From contig JANOQV010000140.1 of assembly GCA_031414955.1 (NCBI GenBank), positions 1-26,365 on the forward strand: a stretch of 26,365 nt of DNA. The letters are read 5' to 3'. Positions 590-26,365 of this stretch are shown here, one piece after another. The notes beneath the pieces are model-generated. The model saw nothing but the letters and a program-made list of their open reading frames with translations, was not told where the DNA came from and ran no database searches. The DNA comes from Pedosphaera sp. (GTDB lineage: Bacteria; Verrucomicrobiota; Verrucomicrobiia; Limisphaerales; SIBH01). The translations under genes were made by a program, and so were the position numbers. Positions within the stretch are counted from its first letter, which is position 1; every line of letters starts with the position of its first letter.

Positions 590-649
590 TCAGGTTTTGA
601 TGTTCATTTCGTACTCGTGCTTGGTCGTCTTGCCGGGGATGGGCACTGG
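590..649 (-). pseudogene. Displaced second 3' end of the Gfo/Idh/MocA gene (PVPIPGKTTKHEYEMNIKT*)
   Basis: 599-649 matches 822-872 at 44/51 nt with a 23-nt identical core. Has its own TGA stop at 590-592 and no credible start. Confidence 0.85.
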
Positions 650-656
650 GAATTCG

Positions 657-2228
657 TTAGCGCATGAGTTCTCCCGCACCACCCTTGCTTAGAATTCTAG
701 ACACCGGTCGCCAACGAGAAGCAGAAACCTTCGCTGGTTCGACTGGAGCAGTAACAATCTTCACCGGTTCTGGCAGCGCCGCCGGCTTTTCCGCAGCCCC
801 TCGCACCAGAAAATCTGGTCGGATGTTGAGTTCATACTCGTGCTTGGTCGTCTTGCCCGGCATAGGCACCGGATACACGCCGTTCGCATCTGCTACGATG
901 GGCGGCGGCGAGTCCATGGTCCACTTGTCGATGCCGGGGGCGTACTCCATGTCGTCGTTGAGCATGTCGTCGTAAGTGATTTCCATGCCGGTGTGCGCGG
1001 CCTTGCGGCCCATGGAGGTGACGACGCTGGCCTGGACGCCGAAGGGAACCTCGTTGTACGGCTTGTCGTTGCGGATGGCGGTGATGAGATCGTTCCACTC
1101 GTTTTGATAAGGGTCGTTTTCCTTTCCGAAGTCGCCCGACTGCCAGAGCATGTTGGTGCGGTTCGGCATCTGGCCCTTGTGAATGCTGGAAGGGCCGGCG
1201 TAATCGCCCGACTTGGCCGCGATGGCCATGCCCTTGGTGCCGTGGACGTTGCTGTAATACATGGGATGCGCGCCCGAGTTGCAGCGGCCTTCCAGGTAGA
1301 ACTTGGCCCCATCGGCAAAAGTGTATTCCACCGCGTAAGAATCAAAATTCTGATCTACCCACATTTCGCCGTCGGGGTTGGTGCGGTAGTGGCGACCGCC
1401 GAGCGCCTGGGCCTTGACCGGCCAGGCGTCCTTCATCCAGCACAGATGATCGATGTGGTGAATGTAGAAGTCGCTGTAGCAACCGCCGCTCGCCCAGAGG
1501 AAGCTGTGGAAGCGCGAAATCTGCCAGAGCAGTTCACTGGGCTTGCCGGGCCAGCGTGTCGAGAAGGCCGAGGCCACGGGACCGTGGCAGCGATAACCGC
1601 GCATCAGCATCACGTCGCCGATTTCACCGTTCTGCACGCGCTTGTGCAGTTCCTGAAGATGGCGCGCATGGCGGGACATCAGACCGACGCCGACCTTGAG
1701 GCCCTTGGCACTGGCCTTGTCAGAAAGTTCCAACATGCGGCGCGAAGTCGGGCCGTCGGCGGTGACAGGCTTTTCCATGAAGACGTTCAGCTTTTTCTCG
1801 ATGGCGTACTGGAAGTGAACCCAGCGGAAGGCCAGCGGAGTGGTGAAGATAGCCACATCGCCGGGGCGCAGGCAGTCCATCGCGTTCTTGTAGCCATCAA
1901 AGCCGATGAACTGTTTGTCCTGGGGCACCTGCACCTGGTCGTTGAATTTTTTTTGCAGTGTTTCATGGCTGCCCTTGAGCTTGCCCTCAAAAACATCGGC
2001 CATGGCGACCAGTTTCACCGGGCCGTCCTTCACGGCGAGTGCGTTGCCGGCCGCGCCCGTGCCACGGCCACCGCAGCCGACCAGGGCGATCTGGACGGTC
2101 TGGCTGTCTTGGGCGTGAACATGGGGCAAGGTCACGCCCGCCAGCGCGGAAGCAGCGGCGAAGGTGCCGGTGGTTTTCAAGAAGTCTCGGCGCGAAGCAT
2201 TGGCCGCGAGGTTTGAAGTTTCATTCAT
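657..2228 (-). CDS. Tat-exported Gfo/Idh/MocA family NAD(P)-dependent oxidoreductase (~523 aa) with Pro/Ala-rich C-terminal extension
   Basis: Twin-arginine signal SRRDFLK, Rossmann motif IALVGCGGRG, family motif VFMEKP, HHID. Start moved to ATG 2228 (MNETSN), just before the Tat motif. Confidence 0.92.
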   Translation of the reverse strand: MNETSNLAANASRRDFLKTTGTFAAASALAGVTLPHVHAQDSQTVQIALVGCGGRGTGAAGNALAVKDGPVKLVAMADVFEGKLKGSHETLQKKFNDQVQVPQDKQFIGFDGYKNAMDCLRPGDVAIFTTPLAFRWVHFQYAIEKKLNVFMEKPVTADGPTSRRMLELSDKASAKGLKVGVGLMSRHARHLQELHKRVQNGEIGDVMLMRGYRCHGPVASAFSTRWPGKPSELLWQISRFHSFLWASGGCYSDFYIHHIDHLCWMKDAWPVKAQALGGRHYRTNPDGEMWVDQNFDSYAVEYTFADGAKFYLEGRCNSGAHPMYYSNVHGTKGMAIAAKSGDYAGPSSIHKGQMPNRTNMLWQSGDFGKENDPYQNEWNDLITAIRNDKPYNEVPFGVQASVVTSMGRKAAHTGMEITYDDMLNDDMEYAPGIDKWTMDSPPPIVADANGVYPVPMPGKTTKHEYELNIRPDFLVRGAAEKPAALPEPVKIVTAPVEPAKVSASRWRPVSRILSKGGAGELMR

Positions 2229-2234
2229 AAGGTT

Positions 2235-2264
2235 AGTTTCGTGACGCCGGGGCCGTGATGTCAA
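2235..2264 (-). promoter_or_regulatory. Candidate sigma70 promoter for the oxidoreductase (probably leaderless)
   Basis: Minus strand TTGACA (2264-2259), 18 nt, GAAACT (2240-2235), 6 nt, ATG. Confidence 0.45.
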
Positions 2265-2432
2265 TTCAAGGAAACTCCTGGAGGGCAAATGGAAGTGACT
2301 TCCACCGGCCGCGCTGGAGAGGTGAAGTCCAAGTCAGAGTCGAGGCCGCCGCCTCCAGTCCGAAATCAGGCGCCCCGCCTGGCCGCACTTGTTGACCGGC
2401 CCTTCCCTTCGCACTCATTCTTGGATGGCAAG

Positions 2433-2461
2433 TTGACGCTGCCAAAACGCGTCGATACATT
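2433..2461 (+). promoter_or_regulatory. Candidate sigma70 promoter for the zinc-ribbon gene
   Basis: TTGACG (2433-2438), 17 nt, TACATT (2456-2461), 25 nt before ATG 2487. Confidence 0.6.
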
Positions 2462-2486
2462 CGCCCGACTTAAACCGGACTCAAAC

Positions 2487-3215
2487 ATGCTCGATGTCAT
2501 AGAAAAAATTCTCGTGCTCCAGGATCGCGACCGGAAAATCATCCACGCCCGGGAGGAGTTGGCCCATGTCGCGCCGGAAAGGGCGGAGTTACTTGGTCGC
2601 GCCTCTGGCACCAAGGCCCGCCTGGATGCCGCCAAACTGGCCCAAAAGCAGATTGAGTCCGACCGCAAAAAGCTGGAACTCGACGTCGAGGCCAAGCAGC
2701 AACAGATCAACAAGTACGCCAACCAGCAACTTCAGACCAAGAAGAACGAGGAATACAAGGCGCTCGCCAACGAGATCGAGAATTGCAAGAAGGTCATCCT
2801 GGGCCTCGAAGATCAGGAACTCGAGTTGATGGAAAAGGCCGAAACAGCGCAGAAGGATGCCGCCACCGCGCAACTGGCCGCCAGCGAAGCCAAAAAACTG
2901 GTTGACGGCAAAGTCGCCGACCTGGACGCGCGGGAAAAGAACCTTCAGGTCGAACTGGTGAAACTCGAATCCAACCGCGCCGAACTGGCGGCCGTCATCG
3001 ACGACTCAGCCCGCGACAAATACGAACGCCTGCTCAAAAGCAAAGGCGGGAATGCCGCCGTCGGCATCAGCCATCATTCCTGCGGCGGCTGCCACATGAA
3101 ACTCAGCCGCGGACTTGTCGTGGCCTGCCAGGCTCACCAGGAGATTGTGACCTGTTCAAACTGCGGCCGGATTCTCTTCTTCACCCCGGACATGGACCTG
3201 GCCATCGCCGACTAG
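2487..3215 (+). CDS. Coiled-coil protein with C-terminal C4 zinc ribbon (DUF164 / CT398-HP0958-like), 242 aa
   Basis: Long helical coiled coil with NEEYKAL..EI, then CGGCHM and CSNCGRIL. Start at MLDVIEK. Confidence 0.9.
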   Translation: MLDVIEKILVLQDRDRKIIHAREELAHVAPERAELLGRASGTKARLDAAKLAQKQIESDRKKLELDVEAKQQQINKYANQQLQTKKNEEYKALANEIENCKKVILGLEDQELELMEKAETAQKDAATAQLAASEAKKLVDGKVADLDAREKNLQVELVKLESNRAELAAVIDDSARDKYERLLKSKGGNAAVGISHHSCGGCHMKLSRGLVVACQAHQEIVTCSNCGRILFFTPDMDLAIAD

Positions 3216-3338
3216 CTCGTAGGAGACAGCGGAGTGAGCACCGCGAGCAGGGTTTAGTCCTGCGCCGATTCCCGGAACACAGCCGGTCTGCGCTTTGCTT
3301 TCGTGAACACGACGCGTAGTTTCACAGTCGATTGACCT

Positions 3339-6300
3339 ATGCGTTTTAGATTCCTGTGGCTGCTGCCGTGCCTTGCATCGTTGGCGGATGCGCAACTCGC
3401 GCCTCCGACCAATGCGCCCATCGTCGGCGCGCGGCAGCCCGCCCTCAGCCCGGATGGCAAGCGGTTGGCCTTCGTCTATCGCGGCGACATCTGGACTTGT
3501 GATTCCAAGGGCGGGCGCGCCCAGCCCATCACTTCGCATCTGGAAATGGACGCTTATCCGCTCTTCTCCCCGGACGGCCACTGGATCGCTTTCTCGAGCA
3601 AGCGCAGCGGCAACTCGGACATCCACGTCATCCCTGCGGAGGGTGGGGCCGCGCGGCAACTCACCTGGCATTCCGGTTCGGATATTCCCTACGGCTGGAG
3701 CTCGGACGGGAAGTATCTGCTCTTCTCCAGCAAGCGCGACACGGTGAACTACGAACTGTTTTCGCTCGACCTGAACACCGGGCGCACGCGGTTGCTCACC
3801 GAAGATTACGCGACCATCAACAACCCGAACTTTTCCCCGGACGGAAAACAGATCGTGTATGCGCGCTATGGCTTTCCATGGACGCGCCCGCGCTATTCCG
3901 GTTCGGCGGCGGCGGAAATCTGGCTGCTCAACGCCGCGAACGGCCAGCGCCGCGCCCTCACCACCAATGGCTTTCAACATCTCTGGCCGCGTTTCATGCC
4001 GGATGGAAAAATCCTGACCGTGACGGTCGATGAACTGACGCCTTCCACCACCAAGCTCGGGGACACCGTCTCGCCCATCGCGGACAACCCGCACCGTACG
4101 CCCAACCTCTGGCTGTTCGACACGAATGGCGGCGCGAAGCAACTGACCATCTTCACCGGCGGCTCGGTGCGCTGGCCGAGCGTGGCCTCGAAGAGTGGCG
4201 ACATCGCGTTCGAATACGGCCCCGACCTGCATGTGTTGCGCAAGGGGGCGAAAGAATCTCAGCCATTGAAACTCCTCGCGGCGGCGGATGAGAAGCAAAC
4301 CACTCGGCGCCGCGAGAAGGCGACCAGCGGCATCGTCGAGGCCGAGCTTTCGCCCGATGGCAAGACGATGGCCTTCGGTCTGCGCGGCGACATCTGGACG
4401 ATTCCCGTGGAGAAGCCCAAGGGCGTCGCGGCCAAGAACGCCGAGTATGCGACGCGCCTGACGGACTGGGCGGGCGACGACTCGGACTTCATGTGGTCGA
4501 AGGACGGCAAGAAACTTTACTTCACCTCGGACCGTGAATTCTACACGCGCATCTACGAGCTGGAGCTGAAGACGCGCAAAGTCACGCCGCTGTGGAAACG
4601 CAACAGCGATGTCGAGCGCATGAAGCTCTCGCCCGATGGCGCGCAGCTTGGCTTCTGGGTCACCGGCCCCGATGGAGGGCTTTACACCATGACGTTGAGC
4701 AATCAGGAGACGAAGAAGATCGTCAGCGTGCCCGGCCCGCAGTGGCGCAATCAGGGCGGCGGCGACTACGAATGGTCGCCCGACCTGAACTGGATTTGCT
4801 ACGCGCACCGCGGCGAGAGCAAGGCTTGGAACCTCTGGCTCGTCCCCGCCAATGGTTCCGCCGAGCCGCGCAACGTGACGCGCCTTTACGCCCACCACAG
4901 CCTGCCCGCTTGGTCGCCGGACGGGAAGTATCTCTTCTTCCAGAGCAACCGCGACAGCAGCGGCCTCTACGCGCTGCCGCTCGTGGGCGAAGATATTCGC
5001 GTGAGTGACACCGATCTGAAGTTCGTGAAGCCGACCAATGCCGTGACGGTGAAGATCGATTTCGAGGACATCCACCGCCGCATTCGCAAAGTCGGCTCGC
5101 AATCGCCGCAGGCCGACCTGCAAGTCACGGCCGAGGGCGTGATCGTTTTCATCGCCGAGGGCGACGTGGCTTCCATCGGCTACGACGGCAAGGAGTTCAA
5201 GAAGATCACCAGCGGCGGCGGCAAGAGCCAGTTGCGCGTGAGCAAGGACGGCAAGAAGGCTTCCTTCCTGAGCGGCGGCGAGATGTTCACCATGAGCATC
5301 GGCGGCGGCAAGGAGGAGAAAGTCACCTTCACGGCGGAGTGGGAGCGAAACATCCGCGCGGAGCGTCAGGCGTCGTTCACCCAGTTCTGGCGCTCCTACG
5401 AGCGCGGCTTCTACGACGCCAACTTCCATGGGCGCGACTGGTCAAAGATTCGCACCCGCTACGAGCCGTTGCTCGACGCGGTGGAAACCAACGACGAATT
5501 CGCCGGCCTGCTCAACATGATGATTGGCGAACTCGAAACCTCGCACGCTGAAGTCACGGCGGGCACGAACAAGGAAGCCGTGACCACGACGACCACGCCC
5601 CACCTCGGCTTCACCTTCGATTACACGCACGATGGTCCAGGCCTCAAGGTGAAGACCGTGCCGCACGGCGTGCCGGGTTGGTACGAGAAGAAGCGCATTC
5701 AGCCCGGCGACTACGTGCTGGCCATCAACGGCGAGGACGTTTCGTTGAACGAGAACCTCTACAAGTTGATCAACGATCGGCAGGACCGCGAGTTCGAGTT
5801 CCTCGTCAGCACCAACACCGATCGAGAGGGCGCGCGCACCGTAAAGTACAAGGCGCTCAGCACCGACGACTGGACGCAGCTGGCCTACCAGAACCGCGTC
5901 GAACGCACGCGCGAACAGGTCGAGAAGAAGAGCGGCGGCAAGGTCGGCTACCTCCACATCGCCAGCATGGGCGCGCAGAACCAGCAGCAGTTCGAGCGCG
6001 AGGCCTACGAGTTCATGGTCGGGCGCGAGTCGATGATCATCGATGTGCGGTTCAACAGCGGCGGCAACATCGCCGACACCCTGGTCGAGTGGCTCGAACG
6101 CAAACCGCACGGCTGGACCCGCCCGCGCGACGGCGTCAAGGAAGCCGTGCCCTTCCACACCTGGGACCGCAAGATGGTGGTGCTGATGAACGAGCACAGC
6201 TATTCCAACGGCGAAATTTTCCCCAATGCCATGCGTTCCAAGGGCCTGGCCCAGCTCATCGGCATGCCCACGCCCGGCTACGTCATCTGGACGGATTCCC

Positions 6301-6491
6301 TCAGCCTCGTTGATGGCACCAAGGCGCGCATGCCCATGACCGGCGCCTACCGCCTCGACGGCACGCCGATGGAAAACCTGGGCGAGAAGCCGGACCTCGA
6401 AGTGCGTCTGTCGCCGGAGGATTACCTGAACGACCGCGACCCGCAGCTCGACAAAGCGATCGAGGTGTTGGTTGGATCGCCGGTGCAGTAG
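3339..6491 (+). CDS. Tricorn-like S41 peptidase with PD40 beta-propellers and PDZ domain
   Basis: Signal peptide; many (W/F/L)SPDGK repeats; PDZ-like GDYVLAING; S41 motifs GYLHI, IIDVRFNSGG, SYSNGEIF, DPQLDKAIE. Confidence 0.93.
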   Translation: MRFRFLWLLPCLASLADAQLAPPTNAPIVGARQPALSPDGKRLAFVYRGDIWTCDSKGGRAQPITSHLEMDAYPLFSPDGHWIAFSSKRSGNSDIHVIPAEGGAARQLTWHSGSDIPYGWSSDGKYLLFSSKRDTVNYELFSLDLNTGRTRLLTEDYATINNPNFSPDGKQIVYARYGFPWTRPRYSGSAAAEIWLLNAANGQRRALTTNGFQHLWPRFMPDGKILTVTVDELTPSTTKLGDTVSPIADNPHRTPNLWLFDTNGGAKQLTIFTGGSVRWPSVASKSGDIAFEYGPDLHVLRKGAKESQPLKLLAAADEKQTTRRREKATSGIVEAELSPDGKTMAFGLRGDIWTIPVEKPKGVAAKNAEYATRLTDWAGDDSDFMWSKDGKKLYFTSDREFYTRIYELELKTRKVTPLWKRNSDVERMKLSPDGAQLGFWVTGPDGGLYTMTLSNQETKKIVSVPGPQWRNQGGGDYEWSPDLNWICYAHRGESKAWNLWLVPANGSAEPRNVTRLYAHHSLPAWSPDGKYLFFQSNRDSSGLYALPLVGEDIRVSDTDLKFVKPTNAVTVKIDFEDIHRRIRKVGSQSPQADLQVTAEGVIVFIAEGDVASIGYDGKEFKKITSGGGKSQLRVSKDGKKASFLSGGEMFTMSIGGGKEEKVTFTAEWERNIRAERQASFTQFWRSYERGFYDANFHGRDWSKIRTRYEPLLDAVETNDEFAGLLNMMIGELETSHAEVTAGTNKEAVTTTTTPHLGFTFDYTHDGPGLKVKTVPHGVPGWYEKKRIQPGDYVLAINGEDVSLNENLYKLINDRQDREFEFLVSTNTDREGARTVKYKALSTDDWTQLAYQNRVERTREQVEKKSGGKVGYLHIASMGAQNQQQFEREAYEFMVGRESMIIDVRFNSGGNIADTLVEWLERKPHGWTRPRDGVKEAVPFHTWDRKMVVLMNEHSYSNGEIFPNAMRSKGLAQLIGMPTPGYVIWTDSLSLVDGTKARMPMTGAYRLDGTPMENLGEKPDLEVRLSPEDYLNDRDPQLDKAIEVLVGSPVQ

Positions 6492-6518
6492 AGAACAGGC
6501 TGCCGCTCAAATGCACCA

Positions 6519-6788
6519 GAGCCTGGGTTTTCAAACCGCCGCCGAGTGAAAGGGAGAGCGGTATCCGCAAGTTCCCACGGCCTTGGCCTACGAACGTGGC
6601 TGCGCGTTGAAAACTCGCGCTCCGGGGTGAGCAAAACACCCAGACGAGCGCGCACCGCCAGGTGGTGTTGGTCGCGCAGCGACCAGTAGAGCCGCAGGCC
6701 AAGGCGCAACGAATGGGCGGACCCAAGACTTTGCTTCCGGCGGCCCGCTGGGCGCGGGCCGAGTTGTCGCAGCGCGACAACTTCCACC
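6519..6788. repeat. Two inverted doublets of REP-like palindromes
   Basis: 6519-6539 (gagcctgggttttcaaaccgc) is an imperfect inverse of 6602-6622. 6661-6687 (ggtggtgttggtcgcgcagcgaccagt) is an imperfect inverse of 6761-6788; these two carry internal hairpins (6669-6685, 6762-6782). Extra 8-bp stem at 6741-6761. Confidence 0.6.
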
Positions 6789-7027
6789 TCCTCGGCTTCG
6801 TCCGATGGCAGTATCAAGATGCCCCTCTGAAGCTTGGGGCGGTGAGGTGTAGCTTGCCTCAGCGCGGTTGGTCGGGCATCCATTCTTGCTGCACGTTCGC
6901 CCCCGGCGTGCTGGGGTCAGCTCCCCCACTTTCATCTTAGCTTTAGCTGGTCCTAAGCTGTTGCGCCCGCCGCTGCGCAGGGCCTACTCCGCACCAGAAG
7001 AACCGCAAGGGTGAGAGCTACAGAAGG

Positions 7028-8344
7028 TCAGCGATTAAATCCGCCGCGCGGACGGTAGGGGCGCGCGGAGCGACCGGCGCGATTCCCGGACCCGCCGCCG
7101 TAGCCGCCGCGCTGCGGTTGCGCGGGCCGATCCGGGCCGGAGGAACGCTGCGGGGGCCGGCCTGGGGATGGACGGTGTTGCGCCGGGCGATGGGCTTCCG
7201 GGGGCGGACCGCCGGCGGAATAGTTAAAGCCCTCGGCGCGTTTGCGCACGATGCCGCGTCCGATGAATCGCTCGACCGAACGCAGATCACCTTGATCCTC
7301 CGGAGTCACAAAACTGATCGCATCACCGATCGCTTGGGCGCGTCCGGTGCGTCCGATGCGATGAACGTAATCCTCCGCGTGCATCGGGAAGTCGAAGTTC
7401 ACCACATGGGAGATGCCGTCCACGTCGATGCCGCGGGCCGCGATGTCGGTGGCGACGAGCACGCGCACCGCGCCCGACTTGAAGTCTTTGAGGGCGCGCA
7501 GGCGCTGGTTCTGGGAACGGTTCGAGTGCAGCGTGGCGGTGCGAATGCCGCTGTGTTCGAGCTTGTCCGCGATGCGATCCGCGCCGTGCTTCATGCGCGA
7601 GAAGACCAGCACCATGTCCATCTGCGGATCCTTGAGCAGATGCACGAGCAGCGCGGGCTTGAGGTGCTTGGGCACTTCATAGATCAGTTGGGTGACGGTT
7701 TCGGCGGGATTGGACCGGCGGCCGATCTGAATGATCTTGGGCGCGTGCTGGAATTCGCGGGTGAGACGTTCGATCTCAGTGGAGAGCGTGGCCGAGAAGA
7801 GCAGCGTCTGCCGCTTCTGAGGCAGCATGCGGACAATCTGTCGGATCGCGGGAATGAAACCCATGTCCAGCATCCGGTCGGCTTCATCCAGCACGAGGAA
7901 TTCCAGCCCGGAGAAATCTCCATTGCGCCGCTCCACCAAATCCATCAGCCGCCCCGGGCAGGCCACGATGATGTCCGTGCCGGCCCGCAGCGCGCGAATC
8001 TGCGGGCCTTCCCCCACGCCGCCGAAGACCGTCGCCACCGTCAGCGGCAGGTGGCGGGCGTAGGCGCGGATGTTCTCGTCGATCTGCACGGCCAATTCGC
8101 GCGTCGGGGCCAGGACCAGCACGCGAGTGCGCCGCGCTCCCGGCGGGCCGGAGGCGAGCTTGGTGAGGATGGGCAGGGTGAAGGCCGCCGTCTTACCCGT
8201 GCCCGTCTGGGCGATGCCGATCAAGTCGTGCCCGGCGAGGATGGGCGGGATGGCCGCCGTCTGGATGGGCGTGGGTTCGGTGTATCCGGCCTCCTGGACG
8301 GCTTTCAAAATTCTAGGCTCAAGGCCAAGCGCGTTAAACGACAT
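7028..8344 (-). CDS. rhlE: DEAD-box RNA helicase, RhlE-like (438 aa)
   Basis: Q motif GYTEPTPIQ, AQTGTGKT, PTRELA, DEAD, SAT, ARGID, HRIGRTGR, and an R/G/P-rich tail. Start at MSFNALGL. Symbol is a best guess among DEAD-box paralogues. Confidence 0.9.
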   Translation of the reverse strand: MSFNALGLEPRILKAVQEAGYTEPTPIQTAAIPPILAGHDLIGIAQTGTGKTAAFTLPILTKLASGPPGARRTRVLVLAPTRELAVQIDENIRAYARHLPLTVATVFGGVGEGPQIRALRAGTDIIVACPGRLMDLVERRNGDFSGLEFLVLDEADRMLDMGFIPAIRQIVRMLPQKRQTLLFSATLSTEIERLTREFQHAPKIIQIGRRSNPAETVTQLIYEVPKHLKPALLVHLLKDPQMDMVLVFSRMKHGADRIADKLEHSGIRTATLHSNRSQNQRLRALKDFKSGAVRVLVATDIAARGIDVDGISHVVNFDFPMHAEDYVHRIGRTGRAQAIGDAISFVTPEDQGDLRSVERFIGRGIVRKRAEGFNYSAGGPPPEAHRPAQHRPSPGRPPQRSSGPDRPAQPQRGGYGGGSGNRAGRSARPYRPRGGFNR

Positions 8345-8508
8345 GCAGCCATCTTGCGGGATCGCGGAGCAATAGCACGCAATTAACTTGGAGGCGATGA
8401 GAGGCGGGCGCACCTTGGAATTGCCGCTGTCATCCTGTCTGGCACTGCGACCCAAAAGACCAACGACCTAATCGCGAAACAATCCGCGAGCCAGGCTGGA
8501 TTGAGAGA

Positions 8509-8537
8509 TTGCGAGCCGCACTTGGTTGCGGCAGAGT
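8509..8537 (+). promoter_or_regulatory. Candidate promoter/operator of the MNT-HEPN operon
   Basis: TTGCGA (8509-8514), 17 nt, CAGAGT (8532-8537), 7 nt, ATG. Inverted repeat gccgca-N6-tgcggc (8515-8532) fills the spacer. Confidence 0.4.
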
Positions 8538-8544
8538 TCCGACC

Positions 8545-8856
8545 ATGAGCGTCGCCGAGTTGCCCATCCCGCTGGACCGCGAGAAAATCGCGGAGTTCTG
8601 CCGTGCGCGCGGCATCCGCAAGCTGAGCCTCTTCGGTTCCGTGCTCCGGGATGACTTCGATCCCGCTCGCAGTGACGTGGATGTGCTGGTGGAATTTCTC
8701 CCCGGCGTTCGGCCCGGCCTCAAGTTCTTCGGCTACGGCGAGGCGCTGGCGGAGATCATCGGACACAAAGTGGATTTCAACACCGCCGAGTGGTTGAGCA
8801 AATACTTCCGTGATGATGTGGTCCGGGAGTCTGTCGGAATTTATGAGCAGGCATGA
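8545..8856 (+). CDS. Minimal nucleotidyltransferase (MntA-type antitoxin), 103 aa
   Basis: LFGSVLRDDFDPARSDVDVLV fits the GS..DxD nucleotidyltransferase motif; KVD near the C-terminus; overlaps the HEPN gene. Confidence 0.9.
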   Translation: MSVAELPIPLDREKIAEFCRARGIRKLSLFGSVLRDDFDPARSDVDVLVEFLPGVRPGLKFFGYGEALAEIIGHKVDFNTAEWLSKYFRDDVVRESVGIYEQA

Positions 8857-9199
8857 TCCGAAAGTGACGCTGCGCCAGCTTGCGGAGTACGCGCGCCACT
8901 CCCAGGAGATTTGCAGTCAAAACACCTTGCCGGAAATCCGGGCCGACTGGCAGAAGCGCGCGGCCTTTGAGCGGGTGATGGAAGTTCTCGGCGAAGCGGT
9001 GAAGCGGCTGCCCTTTGAGTTGTGCCAGCAATATCCCGCCGTGGAATGGCGTCTGGTGGCCGGGATGCGCGACCGCGTGAGTCACGGCTACGACGGCATT
9101 GATTACCAGATGCTGTGGGACACGGTGGAGCAAGACTTGCCAACGCTGCTCACCACGGTCGAGAAGATGCTCGCTGACCTCGACAAGAGTTCTCATTGA
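8843..9199 (+). CDS. HepT-like HEPN RNase toxin (DUF86), 118 aa
   Basis: EVLGEAVKRL and WRLVAGMRDRVSHGY (R-x4-H-x-Y); 14-nt overlap with the MNT gene. Confidence 0.9.
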   Translation: MSRHDPKVTLRQLAEYARHSQEICSQNTLPEIRADWQKRAAFERVMEVLGEAVKRLPFELCQQYPAVEWRLVAGMRDRVSHGYDGIDYQMLWDTVEQDLPTLLTTVEKMLADLDKSSH

Positions 9200-9220
9200 C
9201 TCGCAGACTCGCAGACTCGC
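9198..9220. repeat. Tandem 8-mer (gactcgca) x ~2.9
   Basis: gactcgca gactcgca gactcgc, starting inside the HEPN stop codon. Confidence 0.8.
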
Positions 9221-9234
9221 CGGTCGGCGCTCCG

Positions 9235-9764
9235 CTACACCCGCAGCTTCGCCAGCAAGTCCTTGCTCTCCACGTTCTCGCCGACCTGGACGTTGATCTC
9301 GCTGACCACGCCGTCTGCCGCTGCGTAGATCGTGGTCTGCATCTTCATCGCTTCCATGGTCATCAGCTTGTCGCCTTTCGCCACCTTGGTGCCGACGCTA
9401 ACGTTGACGCTGGTGATGATGCCGGGAATGGGCGCGCCGGCCTGGAGCGGATCGGCAGGGTCGGCCTTGGCGCGGGCTTTCTTGTCGGCCTTGGCGGACT
9501 TGTCGGCGATGTGCGCGACGCGGGTGATGCCGTTGAGTTCGTACGTCACCGGGCGGCGGCCGTCCTTGTCCGGGTCGCCCACGCTGAAGAAGCGGATGAA
9601 GAGCGTCTTGCCTTCCTCGATATCGACGCTGATTTCCTCGGCGGGCTTGAGCCCGTAGAAGAACGCGGCCGTGGGCAGCACGCTCACGTTGCCGTAGTCG
9701 CGCGTGAACTTGGCGAACTCGGCGAAGACTTCGGGATACATGAAGTGGCTGTAGAGATCGTCGT
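9235..9764 (-). pseudogene. Displaced duplicate of the pyc 3' end (includes the biotin-carrier domain), direct repeat of 12255-12784
   Basis: Ungapped alignment at offset 3020; 27 mismatches in 530 nt by hand count; 4 amino-acid changes; intact EAMKM; TAG stop. Confidence 0.95.
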
Positions 9765-9832
9765 AAGCGGAGTCGCGGACAGCCTTGTAAGCAGTTTTTT
9801 CTTCAAGCACGACCGGCGGTAGAAATTGCCGT

Positions 9833-9861
9833 TTGCGAAGCCCGGTCCGGCTGGCTATTCT
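9833..9861 (+). promoter_or_regulatory. Candidate sigma70 promoter of the antitoxin-ParE operon (leaderless)
   Basis: TTGCGA (9833-9838), 17 nt, TATTCT (9856-9861), 6 nt, GTG start. Confidence 0.55.
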
Positions 9862-9867
9862 TTCGCC

Positions 9868-10092
9868 GTGAGCACACTGATGGAAATTCAAGACGCCGTA
9901 ACGAGGCTTCCCGCTGACGAGAAGACCGCCCTCTCGCTCTGGCTGAATTCCCAGGCCGCGCCCGCCCTGAGCGCGCGCGAGGAGCAACAGCTTCTCCGCT
10001 CGCTCGACGAAGCCATCCGGGACGTGGATGCGGGCCGGGGCGTGTCGCTGGCCGACGCGCACAAGCTCGTGGTTTCATGGGCTGCAAAGTAA
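9868..10092 (+). CDS. Putative type II antitoxin (addiction-module-like), 74 aa
   Basis: MSTLMEIQDAVTRLP...LDEAIRDVDAGRGVSLADA; small protein overlapping a ParE/RelE gene by 16 nt. Confidence 0.8.
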   Translation: MSTLMEIQDAVTRLPADEKTALSLWLNSQAAPALSAREEQQLLRSLDEAIRDVDAGRGVSLADAHKLVVSWAAK

Positions 10093-10373
10093 TTTTCTCG
10101 CCCCAGGCCATTGCGGACCTCGCGGCTGCCGTCCGCCACATCGCTAAGGACGATCCTCAAACCGCCGAACGCATCGGTCATGCGCTGATTGACCGCGTGA
10201 CCATTCTGGAAAATTTCCCACTGCTCGGCGCTCCTTATCCCAAGCGGCCCGGCGTGCGGAAACTCGTCTCCCGTCCCTACATCATTTTCTACCGCGCCAG
10301 GCCGGAAGAGAACTGCGTGGATATTCTCCGCTACTGGCACGGGACGCAGAGCGAACCGGTGCTGAACGATTGA
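10077..10373 (+). CDS. RelE/ParE family toxin, 98 aa
   Basis: VIFSPQAIADL, LENFPLLG, RKLVSRPYIIFYR, ILRYWHG: typical ParE-like pattern. Confidence 0.9.
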   Translation: MGCKVIFSPQAIADLAAAVRHIAKDDPQTAERIGHALIDRVTILENFPLLGAPYPKRPGVRKLVSRPYIIFYRARPEENCVDILRYWHGTQSEPVLND

Positions 10374-10409
10374 GCCGCCGGTCACCGATGGGTGCCTCTT
10401 TCCGAATAC

Positions 10410-10481
10410 GATGCCGCTCCGACGGAGCTTGGGATTCCGTTGCGGTGGCCTTTCTACAAAGATGCCGCCCCTGACGGGGCT
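10410..10481. repeat. Direct pair of REP-like hairpins
   Basis: gatgccgctccgacggagct (10410-10429) and gatgccgcccctgacggggct (10461-10481); stems gctcc/ggagc and gcccc/ggggc differ by compensatory changes. Confidence 0.75.
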
Positions 10482-10524
10482 GCCTGACCGCGCCCCGTCG
10501 CCAAGTCCGTGGCGACGCGGTTCT

Positions 10525-10753
10525 ATCCCAACGGGATTGCATCATTCAGCCCAGCGTTGCGACGCCGGGTCGCTACGCTGGGAAAGAGGTTTGCAGATTC
10601 ACCAACCCTGTAGGGGTTGCATCCCCGGACTGCACCCGCCATGGCCCGCTCGCGCTTCAACCCCTGCAGGGTTGATGTCGAATTGGTTTCCGGCACCCAG
10701 GGTAGCTCGCGGACTCGCAACCGCTGGGCTGAGTGATGAAATCCCGTTGGGAT
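10525..10753. repeat. 229-bp palindromic REPIN/MITE-like element
   Basis: Perfect 14-bp terminal inverted repeat atcccaacgggatt / aatcccgttgggat; arms stay complementary for ~58 nt; inner inverted pair 10603-10619 / 10658-10674. Confidence 0.85.
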
Positions 10754-10939
10754 TCAGGGGCGGCGCGATTGGGAAACCCGACTGGCTCCGCCGCGCGCAC
10801 CGGGAGAAAAAGCCGCGCTCGACAGCCCGTTTTCCCTGCCTACACTGCCGCTATGACCGCGCCGTTCCCGGACTGTTTCACGGATGGGCTGAAACGCGAA
10901 TTGCGGGCGAATATCTGTTGGAGCTGACGACAGGAGATT

Positions 10940-11437
10940 ATGGTGCCGCACAAGTACGACGAGATTGTCAGACATTTGTCAGCCGCTTTCGCCGAGATGA
11001 GAAGGATCGGCCTTGCCGACGTTGTGGCGAAAGGGGGAGTTGGCGAAATTTTACTGGCCCGCAATCGCGGACATGAATTGATTGTTTCCGACAAGGGAGC
11101 CGACGGGAAGGATTCCAATGACAATCGTTACGAGTACAAGGTCAGCATAACGGATCAGTTCAACTTCCACTTTGGCACACGCGAAACCAAAGACCCGCCT
11201 GAAGAGAAGGTGAAGAAACATTTTAAGGGTCTCAAAGGTGCGCTTTGCGCAAAGCGTGAGGACGAGAAGATAAAGCGGATTGTGTTTATCCCCACTGAAT
11301 CAATCGTGCCCTATCTCATCGATCACTTTGCCAATACGACAGGAAAGCAATTGAACGGGAATTTCTCATTCGGCCGTCTGCTTGCGATGAGGGATGCCGT
11401 AGAGCTAAACCCTGAAGACCCAACAAGTGCTCTGTGA
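10940..11437 (+). CDS. PD-(D/E)XK nuclease, PvuII restriction endonuclease-like, 165 aa
   Basis: RBS AGGAG upstream; GGVGE...GADGKDSNDNRYEYK gives D55-x9-E65-x-K67; size and layout resemble R.PvuII as recalled from memory. Confidence 0.65.
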   Translation: MVPHKYDEIVRHLSAAFAEMRRIGLADVVAKGGVGEILLARNRGHELIVSDKGADGKDSNDNRYEYKVSITDQFNFHFGTRETKDPPEEKVKKHFKGLKGALCAKREDEKIKRIVFIPTESIVPYLIDHFANTTGKQLNGNFSFGRLLAMRDAVELNPEDPTSAL

Positions 11438-12251
11438 ACTGTCGCTACGTCGCGTGAACAACACCATCGTCCAGCCACCAACCAAGGAAATCCTCGCGCT
11501 TTGCGACGACTCCGACTTGCTTATCGAGCGATATCTGGCGTGCGTTGGCACGATTCGCAGAACGATTCGCCGTTTCGAAGCTGAGACGGAGGTTTACACC
11601 ATCATGAAGCTCCTGATTCGCCACTTGGAGTCGGTATGCCAGTTGGCGCGTCACGATCTCGTTCAACTACCCTCCGCAGTCGTCCTCTCTCGCGCGGCTT
11701 TCGAGGCCAGCGTTCGCGCACGGTGGATGCTCCGTCCAGTTGATCCCTATGAACGAGAGGTGCGATGGGTTCTGCATCTTCGCTCTGCGACGGAGCACTA
11801 CGCCAAATTGGAGCGCAGCACATGCATACCGAAGGAGACCGCTGCGGCTTACGGCCTACGCCGCCAATCATACGAGGAATTCGGTGCCGACATTTCCAAA
11901 CTCCTTTGTGAGCGTGGATACTCCTTACCAAAGCAAGCCCCGAACATTTGGGAGATGGTCAAGGACATCGGCGAGCCAAACCTTTACCATTTCTACATTC
12001 TTCTTTCCGCCTACACGCACACGAATTTCGAGGCAGGCAACCTCTATCGTAAAAATCTCGGCAACGCGAAGGAACTGGGCGAGTTCATCACACCCAAAGA
12101 TTGGCAGCTTCCTTTGGAGGTCGCTTGGAGGTCCTTTTTCGTCATCGCCCACGACTTCTTGTACTGGGTCGAGGCAGACATGGCGACATTCTCCTCGAAG
12201 ACCCTGCGCCCCGGCTTTGAATCGCACTTATCCCAACTCAATGCGGCCTGA
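11427..12251 (+). CDS. DUF5677-like (HEPN-related) helical protein; start may be GTG 11454
   Basis: SAVVLSRAAFE and LYHFYILLSAYTH match the A..L.R...E and Y..LS...H pattern of DUF5677-type proteins. Confidence 0.6.
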   Translation: MLCELSLRRVNNTIVQPPTKEILALCDDSDLLIERYLACVGTIRRTIRRFEAETEVYTIMKLLIRHLESVCQLARHDLVQLPSAVVLSRAAFEASVRARWMLRPVDPYEREVRWVLHLRSATEHYAKLERSTCIPKETAAAYGLRRQSYEEFGADISKLLCERGYSLPKQAPNIWEMVKDIGEPNLYHFYILLSAYTHTNFEAGNLYRKNLGNAKELGEFITPKDWQLPLEVAWRSFFVIAHDFLYWVEADMATFSSKTLRPGFESHLSQLNAA

Positions 12252-12254
12252 CCT

Positions 12255-15200
12255 TTACACCCTCAGCTTCGCCAGCAGATCCTTGCTCTCCACGTTCTCG
12301 CCGACTTGCACGTTGATCTCGCTGACCACGCCGTCCGCCGCCGCGTAGATGGTGGTCTGCATCTTCATCGCTTCCATGGTCATCAGCTTGTCGCCTTTCG
12401 CCACCTTGGTGCCGACGCTGACGTTGACGCTGGTGATGATGCCGGGAATGGGCGCGCCAGACTGGAGCGGGTCGGCGGGGTCGGCCTTGGCGCGGGATTT
12501 CTTGTCGGCCTTGGCGGATTTGTCGGCGATGTGCGCGACGCGGGTGATGCCGTTGAGTTCGTATGTCACCGGGCGGCGACCCTCCTTGTCCGGGTCGCCC
12601 ACGCTGACGAAGCGGATGAAGAGCGTCTTGCCTTCCTCGATATCGACGCTGATTTCCTCGGCGGGCTTGAGTCCGTAGAAGAACGCGGCGGTGGGCAGCA
12701 CGCTCACGTTGCCGTAATCGCGCGTGAACTTCGCGAACTCGGCAAAGACCTCGGGATACATGAAGTGACTGTAGAGATCGTCGTCGCCGACTTCGCGTTT
12801 CAACTTGCCGATGAGCGAGCGCGTCTCGGCCTTCAAGTCGGCGGGCGGGAAGTTGGAACCGGGCCGGCCCTTGAGCGGCTTCTCGCGGCCAATGACGACC
12901 TTCTGCAACTGCTTCGGCCAGCCGCCCATCGGCAGGCCGAGTCCGCCGCGCAGCATATCGACGACGCTGGCGGGAAAAGGCGTGACGCCGGGTTCGAGGT
13001 TCACCACGTCGGCGGGCTTGATGCCGCGCGTGATGAGAAACATCGTCATGTCACCGACAACCTTGCTGCTCGGCGTCACCTTCACGATGTCGCCGAAGAG
13101 CTGGTTCACCTCGGCGTAAGTGCGCGCGATCTCCGGCCAGCGATGCGCGAGACCCATGCTGGCGGCCTGTTCCTTGAGGTTCGTGTATTGGCCGCCGGGC
13201 ATTTCGTGGAGATACACTTCCGCGCTGCCGGTCTTGGGCGCGGTGTCAAAGGGCGCGTAAATCAAGCGCACGCGCTCCCAGTAGTCGGAGAATTCGTTGA
13301 GCGCTTCGAGGTCGAGTCCGGTGTCGCGCGGCGTACGTTCGAGCGCAGCGACTATGGAGTTCATATTTGGCTGGCTCGTCGAACCGCTCATGCTGGCGAT
13401 GGCGAGATCAACGATGTCCACGCCGGCATCCGCGGCCTTCATCACGCTTGAAGCGTTCACGCCGCTCGTGTCGTGGGTGTGGAAGTGAATGGGCAGGCCA
13501 ACCTCTTCCTTGAGCGCCTTGACCAACGCGTGCGCCGCATAGGGACGGCAGAGTCCCGCCATGTCCTTGATCGCCAAGAGGTGCGCGCCCATGCGCTCCA
13601 GTTCCTTGGCGAGCTTCACGTAATACTTGAGCGAATACTTGGTGCGCTTCGGGTCCAGGATGTCGCCGGTGTAGCAGATGGCGCCCTCGCACAACGCGTG
13701 CGTCTCCTGCACCGCGTCCATCGCGACCGTGAGGTTGGGCAGGTAATTCAGCGAGTCGAAGATGCGGAAGATGTCCATGCCCGACTCGGCGGCGTGCTTG
13801 ACGAAACCGGCCACGACGTTGTCGGGATAATTCGAGTAACCCACGGCGTTGCTGCCGCGAAAGAGCATCTGGAAACAAATGTTCGGCACCTTGGCGCGCA
13901 ACTCGCGCAACCGCGCCCACGGATCTTCGCGGAGGAAACGCATCGACGTGTCGAAGGTCGCGCCGCCCCACATCTCCAGCGAGAACAACTGCGGCGTGCG
14001 TTGCGCCACCGCACCGGCGGCGGCGAGCATGTCGTAGCTGCGTACGCGCGTGGCCATGAGCGACTGATGCGCGTCGCGAAAGGTCGTGTCGGTGATGAGC
14101 AGGCGCTTCTGCTTCGCCGTCCACTCGGCGAATTTCTTCGGGCCGAGTTCGAGCAGCAGGTCGCGCGTGCCTTTCGCCGGCTTGGCCTTGTGGTCGTATG
14201 CCGGTGGCGCGATCTGCGGCGCATGACTCGCGAGCTTGTGGCCCTTCGCGTGCGGATTGCCGTTCACGATCACGTCGCCGAGGAAACTGAGCAGCTTGGT
14301 CGCGCGGTCGCGGCGATGCTTGAAGGCGAACAATTCCGGGGTGTTGTCGATCAGCGTGGTCGTGGCCTGCCCGCTGCGGAAGGTCTCGTTGTGAATCAGG
14401 TTTTCGAGGAACGGGATGTTCGTCTTCACGCCACGAATGCGGAATTCCTTGAGCGACCGATCCATGCGCTGCAACGCCATCTCGAAGGTCTGCCCGCTCG
14501 TCGTGAGCTTCACCAGCAACGAGTCGTAGAAAGGCGTGATGACCGCGCCCGCATAGCCCATGCCGCCGTCGAGTCGCACCCCGAAACCGCCCGCGCTGCG
14601 GTAGGTGAGAATCTTGCCGTAGTCCGGCGTGAACTTGTTCTCGGGATCCTCGGTGGTGATGCGCGACTGCACGGCGTAACCCTGGCGCGGGATTTTATCT
14701 TGCGGCGGCAGGCCAACCTCGGCTGAGAACATCGACTGCCCTTGCGCAATCATTATCTGCGCGCGCACGAGATCGATGCCGGTGATGACTTCCGTGACCG
14801 TGTGCTCGACTTGAATACGAGGGTTCATCTCGATGAAGAACCATTCGTTGCAGTCGAGGTCGTAAAGGAATTCCACCGTGCCCGCGTTGTCGTAACCAAT
14901 CTCTTTCGCGATGCGCGCGGCCGCGAGACACAACTCCTGCCGAACGTGATCGTCCAAGCCAACGCTGGGCGCGATCTCGACAACCTTCTGATGCCGCCGC
15001 TGGACCGAGCAATCGCGTTCGTGCAAATGCAGCACATTGCCGTGCTTGTCGCCGAGCACCTGCACCTCGATGTGCTTCGCGCGCGGAATATATTTCTCCA
15101 GGAACACGGCGGGATTGCCGAAGGCGCGTTCCGCTTCGCCCTGCGCCTCGTCGAGCAGATGGTCGAGGTCACCGGACTTGTGAACGACGCGCATCCCGCG

Positions 15201-15725
15201 CCCGCCGCCGCCGAAGGCCGCCTTGATGATGAGCGGGAAGCCAATCGATTTCGCGACCTTCAACGCCTCGGCGCGATCCGTGATCGGCTCCTCGGTCCCG
15301 GGAAGCGTCGGAACATTGATCTTCGCCGCCAGCGCGCGGGCCGCCGTCTTGTCGCCCATCATGTCGAGCAACTCCGGCTTCGGCCCGACGAAGGTGATGC
15401 CCGCCCCGGCACACGCGCGCGCGAACGCCGCGTTCTCGGAAAGAAACCCGTAACCCGGATGAATGAGATCGACGCCCTTCTCCTTCGCCAGCGCGACAAT
15501 GCTGGGAATGTCGAGATACGCCGCGACCGGCCCCTTGCCCTGACCGACGAGATACGCCTCGTCCGCCTTGAAGCGATGGACCGAGAGGCGGTCTTCCTGC
15601 GCATAGATGGCGACCGTGCGGAGATTCAACTCCGTGGCCGCGCGAAACACGCGGATGGCGATCTCGCTGCGATTGGCGACGAGAAGCTTCTTGAACTCTT
15701 TGGGCTGGGCTTTCGACGAACTCAT
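12255..15725 (-). CDS. pyc: Pyruvate carboxylase, single-polypeptide type
   Basis: Biotin carboxylase (ANRSEIA, GGGGRG, ERDCSVQRRHQK), carboxyltransferase (DTTFRDAHQS, HFHTHDT) and BCCP (EAMKM) domains; 1156 aa. Confidence 0.98.
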   Translation of the reverse strand: MSSSKAQPKEFKKLLVANRSEIAIRVFRAATELNLRTVAIYAQEDRLSVHRFKADEAYLVGQGKGPVAAYLDIPSIVALAKEKGVDLIHPGYGFLSENAAFARACAGAGITFVGPKPELLDMMGDKTAARALAAKINVPTLPGTEEPITDRAEALKVAKSIGFPLIIKAAFGGGGRGMRVVHKSGDLDHLLDEAQGEAERAFGNPAVFLEKYIPRAKHIEVQVLGDKHGNVLHLHERDCSVQRRHQKVVEIAPSVGLDDHVRQELCLAAARIAKEIGYDNAGTVEFLYDLDCNEWFFIEMNPRIQVEHTVTEVITGIDLVRAQIMIAQGQSMFSAEVGLPPQDKIPRQGYAVQSRITTEDPENKFTPDYGKILTYRSAGGFGVRLDGGMGYAGAVITPFYDSLLVKLTTSGQTFEMALQRMDRSLKEFRIRGVKTNIPFLENLIHNETFRSGQATTTLIDNTPELFAFKHRRDRATKLLSFLGDVIVNGNPHAKGHKLASHAPQIAPPAYDHKAKPAKGTRDLLLELGPKKFAEWTAKQKRLLITDTTFRDAHQSLMATRVRSYDMLAAAGAVAQRTPQLFSLEMWGGATFDTSMRFLREDPWARLRELRAKVPNICFQMLFRGSNAVGYSNYPDNVVAGFVKHAAESGMDIFRIFDSLNYLPNLTVAMDAVQETHALCEGAICYTGDILDPKRTKYSLKYYVKLAKELERMGAHLLAIKDMAGLCRPYAAHALVKALKEEVGLPIHFHTHDTSGVNASSVMKAADAGVDIVDLAIASMSGSTSQPNMNSIVAALERTPRDTGLDLEALNEFSDYWERVRLIYAPFDTAPKTGSAEVYLHEMPGGQYTNLKEQAASMGLAHRWPEIARTYAEVNQLFGDIVKVTPSSKVVGDMTMFLITRGIKPADVVNLEPGVTPFPASVVDMLRGGLGLPMGGWPKQLQKVVIGREKPLKGRPGSNFPPADLKAETRSLIGKLKREVGDDDLYSHFMYPEVFAEFAKFTRDYGNVSVLPTAAFFYGLKPAEEISVDIEEGKTLFIRFVSVGDPDKEGRRPVTYELNGITRVAHIADKSAKADKKSRAKADPADPLQSGAPIPGIITSVNVSVGTKVAKGDKLMTMEAMKMQTTIYAAADGVVSEINVQVGENVESKDLLAKLRV

Positions 15726-26109: not shown

Positions 26110-26220
26110 AGTGATTCCGCCCACCGTAACATTCCCGTCACCTGCACCCAAGCACTCTCCTGCCTCCTGCCATGTTACCTGTTGAAGCGCCCTCCCCGAC
26201 CTTCCGGGCAGCAGCAGCCG

Positions 26221-26365
26221 AAACCCCAAACCCCAAGCTCCAAACCCCAAGCACCAGGGAAACCCCAAGTTCCCAAGCTCCCATCGGCCCCGGCACCTCG
26301 AGGCCACCGGCCCGATGAGGAGCTGGACCACCGGCTTGGAGCTTGGGGTTTGGAGCTTCTCTGGT
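26221..26365. repeat. Heptamer-based inverted repeat element (AAACCCC/AAGCTCC units), truncated at the right edge
   Basis: aaacccc aaacccc aagctcc aaacccc aagcacc... at 26221-26282; reverse-complement arm ttggagcttggggtttggagcttctctggt from 26336. Confidence 0.8.

Follow-up and report, generated by a model that had tools for sequence, protein, structure and literature searches.

The DNA analyzed here, referred to below as the window, comprises contig C140 in full (JANOQV010000140.1; 26,365 nt), part of a draft Pedosphaera genome, G000 (GCA_031414955.1). It contains an intact pyruvate carboxylase gene (pyc) that is followed by a small islet of accessory genes and then by a second, start-less copy of its own 3' end. 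Displaced gene ends of this kind follow about 1% of the genes in G000. These duplications were probably left behind when relatives' DNA integrated additively and without a recombinase, anchored by homology at gene ends and by way of single crossover or homology-facilitated illegitimate recombination (HFIR), with survival favored at 3' ends and for addictive cargo. The phenomenon looks like a by-product of general recombination combined with selection and not like a dedicated system. G000 is a metagenome bin of 6.55 Mb in 313 contigs with a completeness of 95.9% and a contamination of 5.84%. The nearest public pyc loci carry the labels Limisphaerales or Verrucomicrobiota, and freshwater-sediment metagenomes contain the stretch. 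The genus relatives compared with G000 are referred to as G001, G002, G003, G007, G008 and G009.

Duplication of the pyc 3' end

The pyc gene (12255..15725, minus strand) encodes an intact protein of 1156 aa with the domains CPSase_L_D2 (Pfam, 1.1e-75), PYC_OADA (6e-68) and Biotin_lipoyl. The last 529 nt of the gene (12256-12784; copy I, 12256..12784 on the minus strand, with a TAA stop at 12255-12257) form one arm of a direct repeat and recur, gap-free and with 95.1% identity, at 9236-9764. The displaced fragment (copy F, 9235..9764, minus strand) lacks a start and ends with a TAG stop (9235-9237). The two copies become alike abruptly at 12784/9764 and remain so as far as the stop codon. Within the repeat, the copies differ at 27 sites, 22-23 of which are third codon positions, and the protein sequence changes at 4 aa in 176 codons. 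The pyc orthologs of the genus relatives show 80-87% identity, and both copies are about equally far (76-86%) from nine of these orthologs, which suggests that the donor was a close relative of the host.

The copies are separated by an inserted islet of 2.49 kb (9766..12254), the G+C content of which is 0.53-0.56 compared with about 0.62, and which is missing from the corresponding junction in G008, where pyc runs directly into a homolog of window positions 8498-9235 (contig C359; 83% identity over 1266 nt). G008 thus represents the empty site: the displaced copy and the DNA that follows it retain the ancestral order, to which the cargo and one repeat unit were added. The ancestral pyc-downstream region (8498..9234) is collinear with C359 and contains two conserved plus-strand genes (8509-8856 and 8810-9199); the frames in this region show 85-90% aa identity to G008 on the plus strand vs 67-70% on the minus strand.

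Contigs from two metagenome runs bridge the pyc junctions. Unitigs from run X1, which may be the source sample, bridge three junctions at an even depth of 10-13 and without differences, namely cargo/fragment at 9765/9766 (record 3, 9722-10343), cargo/pyc at 12254/12255 (record 6, 11748-12291) and fragment/downstream at 9235/9236 (record 2), and the depth of the islet is even with that of its flanks. Unitigs from run X2 bridge 12254/12255 and 9235/9236, and runs X3 and X5 contain only parts of the stretch, from relatives. All bridging contigs are short-read unitigs, not long reads; a junction that leads from mid-gene to cargo at full depth is hard to obtain through mis-assembly.

An allelic end swap in an oxidoreductase gene

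The second duplication in the window involves a Gfo/Idh/MocA-type oxidoreductase of 543 aa (657..2288, minus strand; Pfam GFO_IDH_MocA_C3) that carries a twin-arginine translocation (TAT) signal recognized by NCBIfam and a C-terminal extension of 55 aa. A 51-nt segment within the intact gene (822..872, minus strand) is repeated with 86% identity at 599-649. The upstream copy has no stop codon of its own; its frame continues for 55 codons across a 172-bp insert (650..821, minus strand) to a stop at 657-659. The extension is missing in nine of the ten genus orthologs, which terminate two codons past the 51-nt motif, and is present in G001. In nine relatives the insert is unmatched, with homology ending at 820-832, and G001 matches it with 78.5% identity down to position 705. 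That nine of ten orthologs end after the motif and G001 reads on argues that the 172 bp, first taken for foreign DNA, represent an alternative gene-end allele. This case is an allelic end swap, in which the insert encodes an alternative C-terminal extension and stop native to G001, and the downstream copy (592..649, minus strand; the 51 nt, two more codons and a stop at 592-594, the frame being read by eye) is the ancestral short end.

The initial annotation had described both genes as intact genes followed by foreign DNA and by a stopped copy of the gene's 3' region. This description holds for pyc, where the reported duplication of 530 bp becomes 529 bp at 95.1% identity, with in-frame stops and unitig-bridged junctions, but not for the 51-bp case, where the upstream copy lacks a stop and the insert is an allelic end. 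The absence of integrase, transposase and reverse transcriptase genes that had been noted for the window agrees with the searches described below.

Recurrence and polarity of displaced gene ends

Genes of G000 were called with a crude filter for open reading frames (ORFs) based on G+C at third codon positions, which yields 4624 genes; the counts of repeat rows, of C-terminal copies, of bracketed genes and of genes in G002 given here are therefore approximate. Self-BLAST of each contig produced 68 rows in which one copy of a repeat lies in a long gene and the other outside a comparable gene, with a minimum of 250 codons for genes in 3'-end rows. In 15 of these rows (13 genes), the 3' end is duplicated downstream, as opposed to 3 rows with a 3' end upstream; 5' ends are found upstream in 6 rows and downstream in 2. 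The remaining 42 rows are internal, about nine of them within 75 nt of the called start and with the copy upstream.

The same polarity is seen at the protein level, in a tblastn scan that compared 50-aa segments from the C-terminus, the N-terminus and the middle of 3257 gene products (at least 200 aa) with their own contigs, within 20 kb, from which matches inside comparably long genes were dropped as paralogs prior to counting. At 75% aa identity or higher, C-terminal copies are located downstream on the same strand for 23 genes and upstream for 1, middle-segment copies downstream for 5 and upstream for 1, and N-terminal copies on the same strand upstream for 7 and downstream for 2. With the threshold lowered to at least 60%, downstream C-terminal copies on the same strand are detected for 36 of the 3257 genes and upstream ones for 7. 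Hence the figure of about 1% of the genes; a weaker, mirror-image 5' class exists as well.

The affected genes include pyc, asd, lepA, ispH, gcvP, bioB and two aminoacyl-tRNA synthetase genes, along with genes for an aldehyde dehydrogenase, an M16 peptidase, and DUF1501 and PSD1 proteins. Across the cases, the repeats range from 47 to 594 bp. Behind some genes, namely those for IspH, the DUF1501 protein, the M16 peptidase and a class II aminoacyl-tRNA synthetase, two or three serial fragments are found. Both synthetase genes are on a single 11-kb contig (C83, 1-11169) with fragments behind each: PIN and ParE modules are interspersed among three class II (D/K/N) fragments, and 4.9 kb separate the class IIb synthetase gene from a 205-aa fragment of it, with a D12 methyltransferase in the interval. 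A 5' mirror array is present on C3 (12297-13861), where an intact gene for a 900-aa protein is preceded by two duplicates of its initial 113-180 nt (89% and 94% identity), which alternate with genes for the toxins PemK and YafQ.

None of the 25 window ORFs scanned matches an integrase, transposase or reverse transcriptase family, nor does any of the 149 six-frame ORFs (at least 90 aa) in 17 cargo intervals, and the called genes in these intervals give the same result. Serine recombinases (PF00239) are absent from G000, and the eight tyrosine-recombinase (PF00589) loci of this genome are all located on contigs other than those with cases. Comparison by eye of 22 aligned junctions, with no motif search run, revealed no shared motif at the repeat boundaries.

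Displaced copies as diverged alleles

In 18 pairs of attached and displaced ends, which comprise 904 codons, differences at codon positions 1, 2 and 3 number 52, 25 and 145, respectively (65% at third positions), corresponding to 137 synonymous and 54 non-synonymous codon differences. None of the 18 displaced fragments contains an internal stop codon, and the old and new ends, which belong to housekeeping enzymes, share 86-100% protein identity. This pattern implies that the copies are diverged alleles and not decaying target duplications; the two ends appear to have diverged as working gene ends in separate lineages. The initial annotation had extrapolated from two neighboring genes to a genome-wide habit with a bias toward 3' ends and synonymous divergence of the copies, and these three expectations are borne out by the 36 genes, the 23 to 1 ratio and the codon-position counts given above; the interpretation put forward there is supported.

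Cargo and the link to toxin-antitoxin modules

The pyc islet encodes four proteins on the plus strand. A candidate antitoxin of 70 aa (9880..10092), assigned by position and size, overlaps the start of the toxin gene and has no match in Pfam, NCBIfam or PADLOC. It is followed by a ParE/RelE-family toxin of 98 aa (10077..10373; Pfam ParE_toxin, 1.6e-15; NCBIfam RelE_StbE, 2.9e-6, slightly below the cut-off). The third gene encodes a 165-aa protein (10940..11437) that matches no family in the same three databases; by eye, it contains a D...E-x-K-like motif, and we assume from this resemblance that it may be a small PD-(D/E)xK nuclease. The fourth product, a DUF5677 protein of 274 aa (11427..12251; Pfam DUF5677, 4.5e-7), is encoded convergently with pyc, ends 3 nt from the pyc stop, shows a weak match to PADLOC PDC-S52 (4.9e-6) and has a paralog on C208 (82% nt and 80% aa identity). 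The islet also contains a palindromic dispersed repeat of about 230 bp (10525..10756; inverted repeat I1) that resembles miniature inverted-repeat transposable elements (MITEs) or repetitive extragenic palindromes (REPs). It has 33 BLAST matches on 18 contigs of G000, on both strands, as well as copies in every genus relative searched, and may be a MITE/REP-type element with a preference for accessory DNA.

Toxin-antitoxin domains in the inserts are diverse and include ParE, RelE with a helix-turn-helix partner, PIN, PIN_3, PemK/MazF, SocA/Panacea, DUF433 with DUF5615, and AbiEi/AbiEii. Candidates for restriction, modification or defense are DNA methyltransferases, a PtuB-type HNH protein, a DUF6883 protein and a DUF4143 ATPase (PADLOC PDC-S01, 1.9e-179). 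Local direct repeats bracket 6 of the 13 ParE genes and 7 of the 25 PIN genes, vs 276 of the 4624 called genes overall.

Other inserts are of a different nature. Some are 172-269 bp long and gene-free, and the C11 insert contains a gene for a giant DUF11 protein. On C56, 9.8 kb of ordinary genes (transporters and regulators) are located between convergent genes, with a 594-bp repeat that spans the ends of both. On C65, asd, a gene denoted Y, an asd 3' fragment and a second copy, Y', form a 2.4-kb diverged tandem with 78% identity overall and 93% in the asd part; the asd fragment shows 11 synonymous vs 2 non-synonymous codon differences, and Y and Y' are about 75% alike. Judging from C65, C56 and the 172-bp oxidoreductase insert, the cargo can be plain chromosomal DNA of a relative.

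The islet behind the DUF1501 gene on C137 (58515-62067) contains a further copy of the 230-bp palindrome and five copies of another repeat of about 117 nt (83-93% identical) that cut it into cassette-like units. A sixth C137 copy of the latter is found 3 kb further on (65412-65525); the repeat is also present on C131 and flanks a PIN toxin gene on C138 (3598-3709 and 4569-4679). Neither the palindrome nor the 117-nt repeat matches an Rfam family at the gathering score.

The pyc locus in related genomes

Tail fragments of pyc with other inserts are found in three of the nine genus relatives that have the pyc end, namely G009 (two fragments), G007 and G003. In these relatives, the fragments are 113, 119, 135 and 156 nt long, as compared with 529 nt in G000, and a common core within the last 113 nt is possible. 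The insert at the G003 site encodes a truncated Type ISP/IIG restriction enzyme and a PsyrA-like protein. G009 (C159, 2569-2902) and G007 (C95, 1828-2168) share an insert of about 335 bp between pyc and the 113-119-nt tail, 95% identical including its flanks, which by eye contains a coding frame for about 76 aa in the same orientation as pyc. In G007 (C25), a ParE module related to that of the window lies between two copies of a 56-bp sequence from the 5' end of the following gene. In G002, the sole ParE gene is located directly downstream of the DUF1501 ortholog, without a duplication, which is the configuration that a donor would have.

Proposed route of integration

The incoming DNA would be a piece of a relative's chromosome that consists of a shared gene end and the donor DNA beyond it, would pair with the resident gene by homology, and would be added without replacing resident DNA. 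In a Campbell-type event, a circular or 'ends-in' molecule would integrate through a single crossover inside the shared segment. In HFIR, the homologous end would recombine, and the other end would be joined illegitimately slightly upstream of the resident stop codon. By either route, the outcome would be an intact gene with an allelic 3' end, the cargo behind it and, downstream, the other, start-less copy of the 3' end. Insertions with a gene-internal homology segment would destroy the gene and 5' duplications would have to carry a promoter, so that 3' ends would be expected to dominate among the survivors. Furthermore, repeat-flanked inserts would be easily deleted, which would leave addictive toxin-antitoxin modules and useful restriction and defense cargo over-represented.

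The distribution of ancestral states along the pyc repeat is consistent with such an exchange. Up to repeat position 330 there are 17 informative sites, and copy F carries the genus-consensus state at 12 of them; from position 369, copy I carries it at all nine (permutation p 0.0025 over all breakpoints), a mosaic that a crossover inside the repeat would produce. For asd, the orthologs span less than 80% of the repeat and provide no usable outgroup. G000 encodes one ComEC homolog.

Several observations weigh against this route or limit its reach. A donor allele that was itself mosaic would give the same pyc pattern, the corresponding test for the DUF1501 pair is weak and not robust (p 0.048 and 0.275), and most derived states reside in the copy contiguous with resident flanks, which is predicted by neither model. 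In 4 of 17 pairs, the longest exact tract is only 12-23 nt, a short stretch for a RecA-mediated crossover within the repeat, and therefore one route cannot explain all cases. For these tracts and for the tiny inserts, HFIR anchored further upstream would fit better, and the duplications would then represent the subset of HFIR products with the illegitimate joint upstream of the stop. A Ku homolog was not found in G000, at the completeness given above, so that circularization by end joining is left without support. Neither a circle nor an empty-site joint (skipping about 3020 nt) nor an excision product is present in the contigs of four metagenome runs, which drop rare forms. The donor did not come to light either: the four pyc-cargo proteins had no tblastn match at the pyc loci of nine relatives, and the search of genome contigs yielded no close relative of the DUF5677 protein. 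One case is located at the 3' half of tRNA-Arg, a classic integrase target, and the genomes with positive cases are all fragmented short-read assemblies. Finally, the habit is not general: pyc-end fragments are found in three of nine relatives, but in G002, a stretch of 800 kb with 398 genes, from a contig of 1.5 Mb, contains no case (about 4 being expected at the G000 rate), and outside the genus, a tail fragment is found at 1 of 73 evaluable pyc loci (80 loci from other Verrucomicrobiota and Acidobacteriota). The habit is thus specific to some lineages.

For the genus as a whole, we put forward a broader and more tentative proposal, in which we have somewhat less than even confidence: gene ends may function generally as homology landing pads, no less than a third of the ParE/PIN modules and several restriction and defense islets may have entered recombinase-free on relatives' DNA, and addictive modules may persist by penalizing repeat-mediated deletion.

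Alternative explanations

The strongest competitor, although unlikely, is that the islets are decayed or trans-mobilised islands that integrated site-specifically at gene 3' ends, similar to cis-mobilizable elements (CIMEs), with the repeats being attL and attR and the integrase genes deleted or encoded elsewhere. Elements of this type restore the 3' end of their targets, as e14 and phage 21 do in icd of Escherichia coli and ICESt1/3 and CIMEs at fda of Streptococcus thermophilus, and encode or depend on a tyrosine recombinase with a defined core site. Like the cases described here, they leave a duplicated and restored gene end with synonymous replacement, direct repeats, re-used hot spots, tandem accretion, which the serial fragments behind the IspH, DUF1501, M16 peptidase and aminoacyl-tRNA synthetase genes resemble, and cargo of the defense and toxin-antitoxin kind. 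This explanation may apply to some loci, notably the tRNA-Arg case: on C218 (10949-14125), AbiEi/AbiEii and then a frameshifted gene similar to AEP-TOTE primases lie between tRNA-Arg(CCT) and a 49-nt repeat of its 3' half (98% identical), in an islet in which no integrase was found, and the eight tyrosine-recombinase loci could act in trans. However, none of the 149 cargo ORFs, over about 25 loci, is a recombinase; some 172-269-bp inserts hold no gene at all, and the cargo is sometimes merely an allelic neighbor gene or an alternative gene end. The repeat length at one and the same gene varies from 113 to 529 nt, with no boundary core by eye, the approximately 25 different targets would require many specificities, and a 5' mirror class is also present. 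As no recombinase was found, the cases do not belong to the integrase-island family as tested.

A dedicated mobility mechanism of toxin-antitoxin and defense cassettes, either one that makes long target-site duplications or a cassette system with repeats such as the 117-bp array on C137, is quite improbable. Chromosomal integron arrays and clusters of attC sites lacking integron integrases (CALINs) consist of small cassettes, often toxin-antitoxin modules, separated by a conserved repeat, and the cassette-like units of the C137 islet, split by five 117-bp repeats that also flank the PIN gene on C138, recall this layout. In addition, members of one ParE-type family lie between repeats that derive from different genes in different genomes (the pyc 3' end in G000 and the 56-bp 5' end on C25 of G007), and about one in three ParE and PIN genes has flanking repeats. 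Nevertheless, copies made by insertion would at first be identical, and decay of the dead one would affect every codon position, in contrast to the 65% of third-position differences and the lack of internal stops; several inserts contain no cassette or only ordinary genes. There is no IntI-like gene in or beside the islets, and the repeats that flank them are gene ends. The 117-nt repeat is not attC-like: no attC-like hairpin is detected, fold z-scores range from -2.7 to +1.1, and three of the four strands tested fold no better than shuffles.

Still less probable is an origin free of foreign DNA, in which a gene end and its neighbor were duplicated locally in tandem and the copies later diverged and were partly deleted. 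The C65 locus and the pyc locus of G009 do resemble whole-segment tandem repeats, but elsewhere the cargo mostly has no counterpart after the second copy, the pyc cargo is lower in G+C and absent in G008, and the strongly synonymous divergence of the dead asd fragment beside the approximately 75% likeness of Y and Y' is unlike that of an old in-place duplicate. Both the tandem-duplication and the target-site-duplication readings were rejected on the codon-position pattern.

Least credible of all is an artifact in which short-read assembly of mixed strains strung together two variants of one gene end: every genome that shows the pattern is a fragmented metagenome bin and the sole genus genome sampled with long contigs, G002, shows no case, but unitigs at flank depth cross the pyc junctions in two runs, the passage from cargo to mid-gene requires real reads, in about 25 cases the strand, the direction and the register of the stop codon are unlike what graph errors would give, and G002 is also poor in toxin-antitoxin modules, with 1 ParE gene vs 11-18 in four other relatives.

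Relationship to known systems

Single crossover or HFIR at gene ends, the route that we favor, has laboratory precedents. In E. coli conjugation, 56 of 60 recombinants gave a polymerase chain reaction product diagnostic of a duplication of the lacZ end, and 14 sequenced recombinants contained lacZ-end duplications of 109-950 bp, which the authors ascribe to a single crossover with a circular molecule; typical HFIR, by comparison, yields a deletion and not a duplication (PMC3240628). Integration of these kinds is also cited for Acinetobacter, Streptococcus pneumoniae and Pseudomonas stutzeri (PMC3240628, PMC5361080). The cases in G000 are similar to these in the one-sided homology, the lack of a site-specific recombinase, and the retention of the gene with addition of foreign DNA. 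The size range of the repeats, 47-594 bp, is comparable to that of the single-crossover duplications, the shortest ones falling below it (PMC3240628). The differences are that the experiments employed engineered substrates at one locus, whereas here natural scars are found at about 1% of the genes, with copies that are diverged alleles and cargo biased toward toxin-antitoxin and defense modules.

A natural counterpart is the C-terminal displacement seen in rhs genes, orphan cdiA-CT/cdiI modules and the effector-immunity pairs of the Vibrio cholerae type VI secretion system (T6SS), for which HFIR has been proposed and no integrase is known (PMC5361080). These systems share with the present cases a new 3' part and cargo behind a conserved gene, an old part displaced downstream, and serial arrays. 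Their tips, however, consist of variable toxin domains accompanied by immunity genes and are themselves the target of selection, whereas here the genes are housekeeping ones, the ends are near-identical in protein sequence, and the selected part would be the cargo. Since they involve allelic ends of housekeeping genes, the loci described here are not polymorphic-toxin arrays.

Toxin-antitoxin 'islets' between core genes that contain no mobile-element genes and show high turnover have been described recently, and the mechanisms of their gain and loss are called 'poorly characterized' (Belot et al., 2026; PMC13617665). That work points to res-like palindromes of the Tn3 family and to cointegrate-forming transposases, and displaced gene ends go unmentioned in the passages considered (PMC13617665). 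Our literature search, which mostly did not extend to subscription journals, found no description of displaced housekeeping gene ends around toxin-antitoxin modules. The building blocks are known from laboratory work and from rhs and T6SS loci; new are the scale of about 1% of the genes, the housekeeping targets and the link to toxin-antitoxin and defense islets.

Other features of the window

Positions 1-316 of the window are a repeat, of which bases 1-141 are 100% identical, in reverse orientation, to the start of C127; the entire repeat is 92% identical to positions 16471-16783 of C135, a contig that also bears a tyrosine recombinase (12992-13504). At the opposite end, a giant ORF of at least 2690 aa (18259-26331, minus strand) runs off the contig; it encodes six lamin-tail domains along with PA14, CotH and Ig-like domains and holds diverged internal repeats (families D2-D4).

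Implications

A displaced gene end of the kind described here is a datable scar that would record the site of the join and a donor relative diverged by a few percent, with no recombinase gene brought along. If our interpretation is correct, at least one soil and sediment lineage would gain genes in quantitatively important measure by homologous recombination of the single-crossover or one-sided type, which has so far been known mostly from the laboratory, and the enrichment of toxin-antitoxin modules at such sites would be explained. A simple genome-wide statistic, the number of C-terminal copies downstream vs upstream of the parent genes, would then allow comparison across lineages. Under the broader proposal, the displaced ends would provide a readable footprint of the acquisition of toxin-antitoxin islets 'without mobile-element signature', one that could be counted in all genomes.

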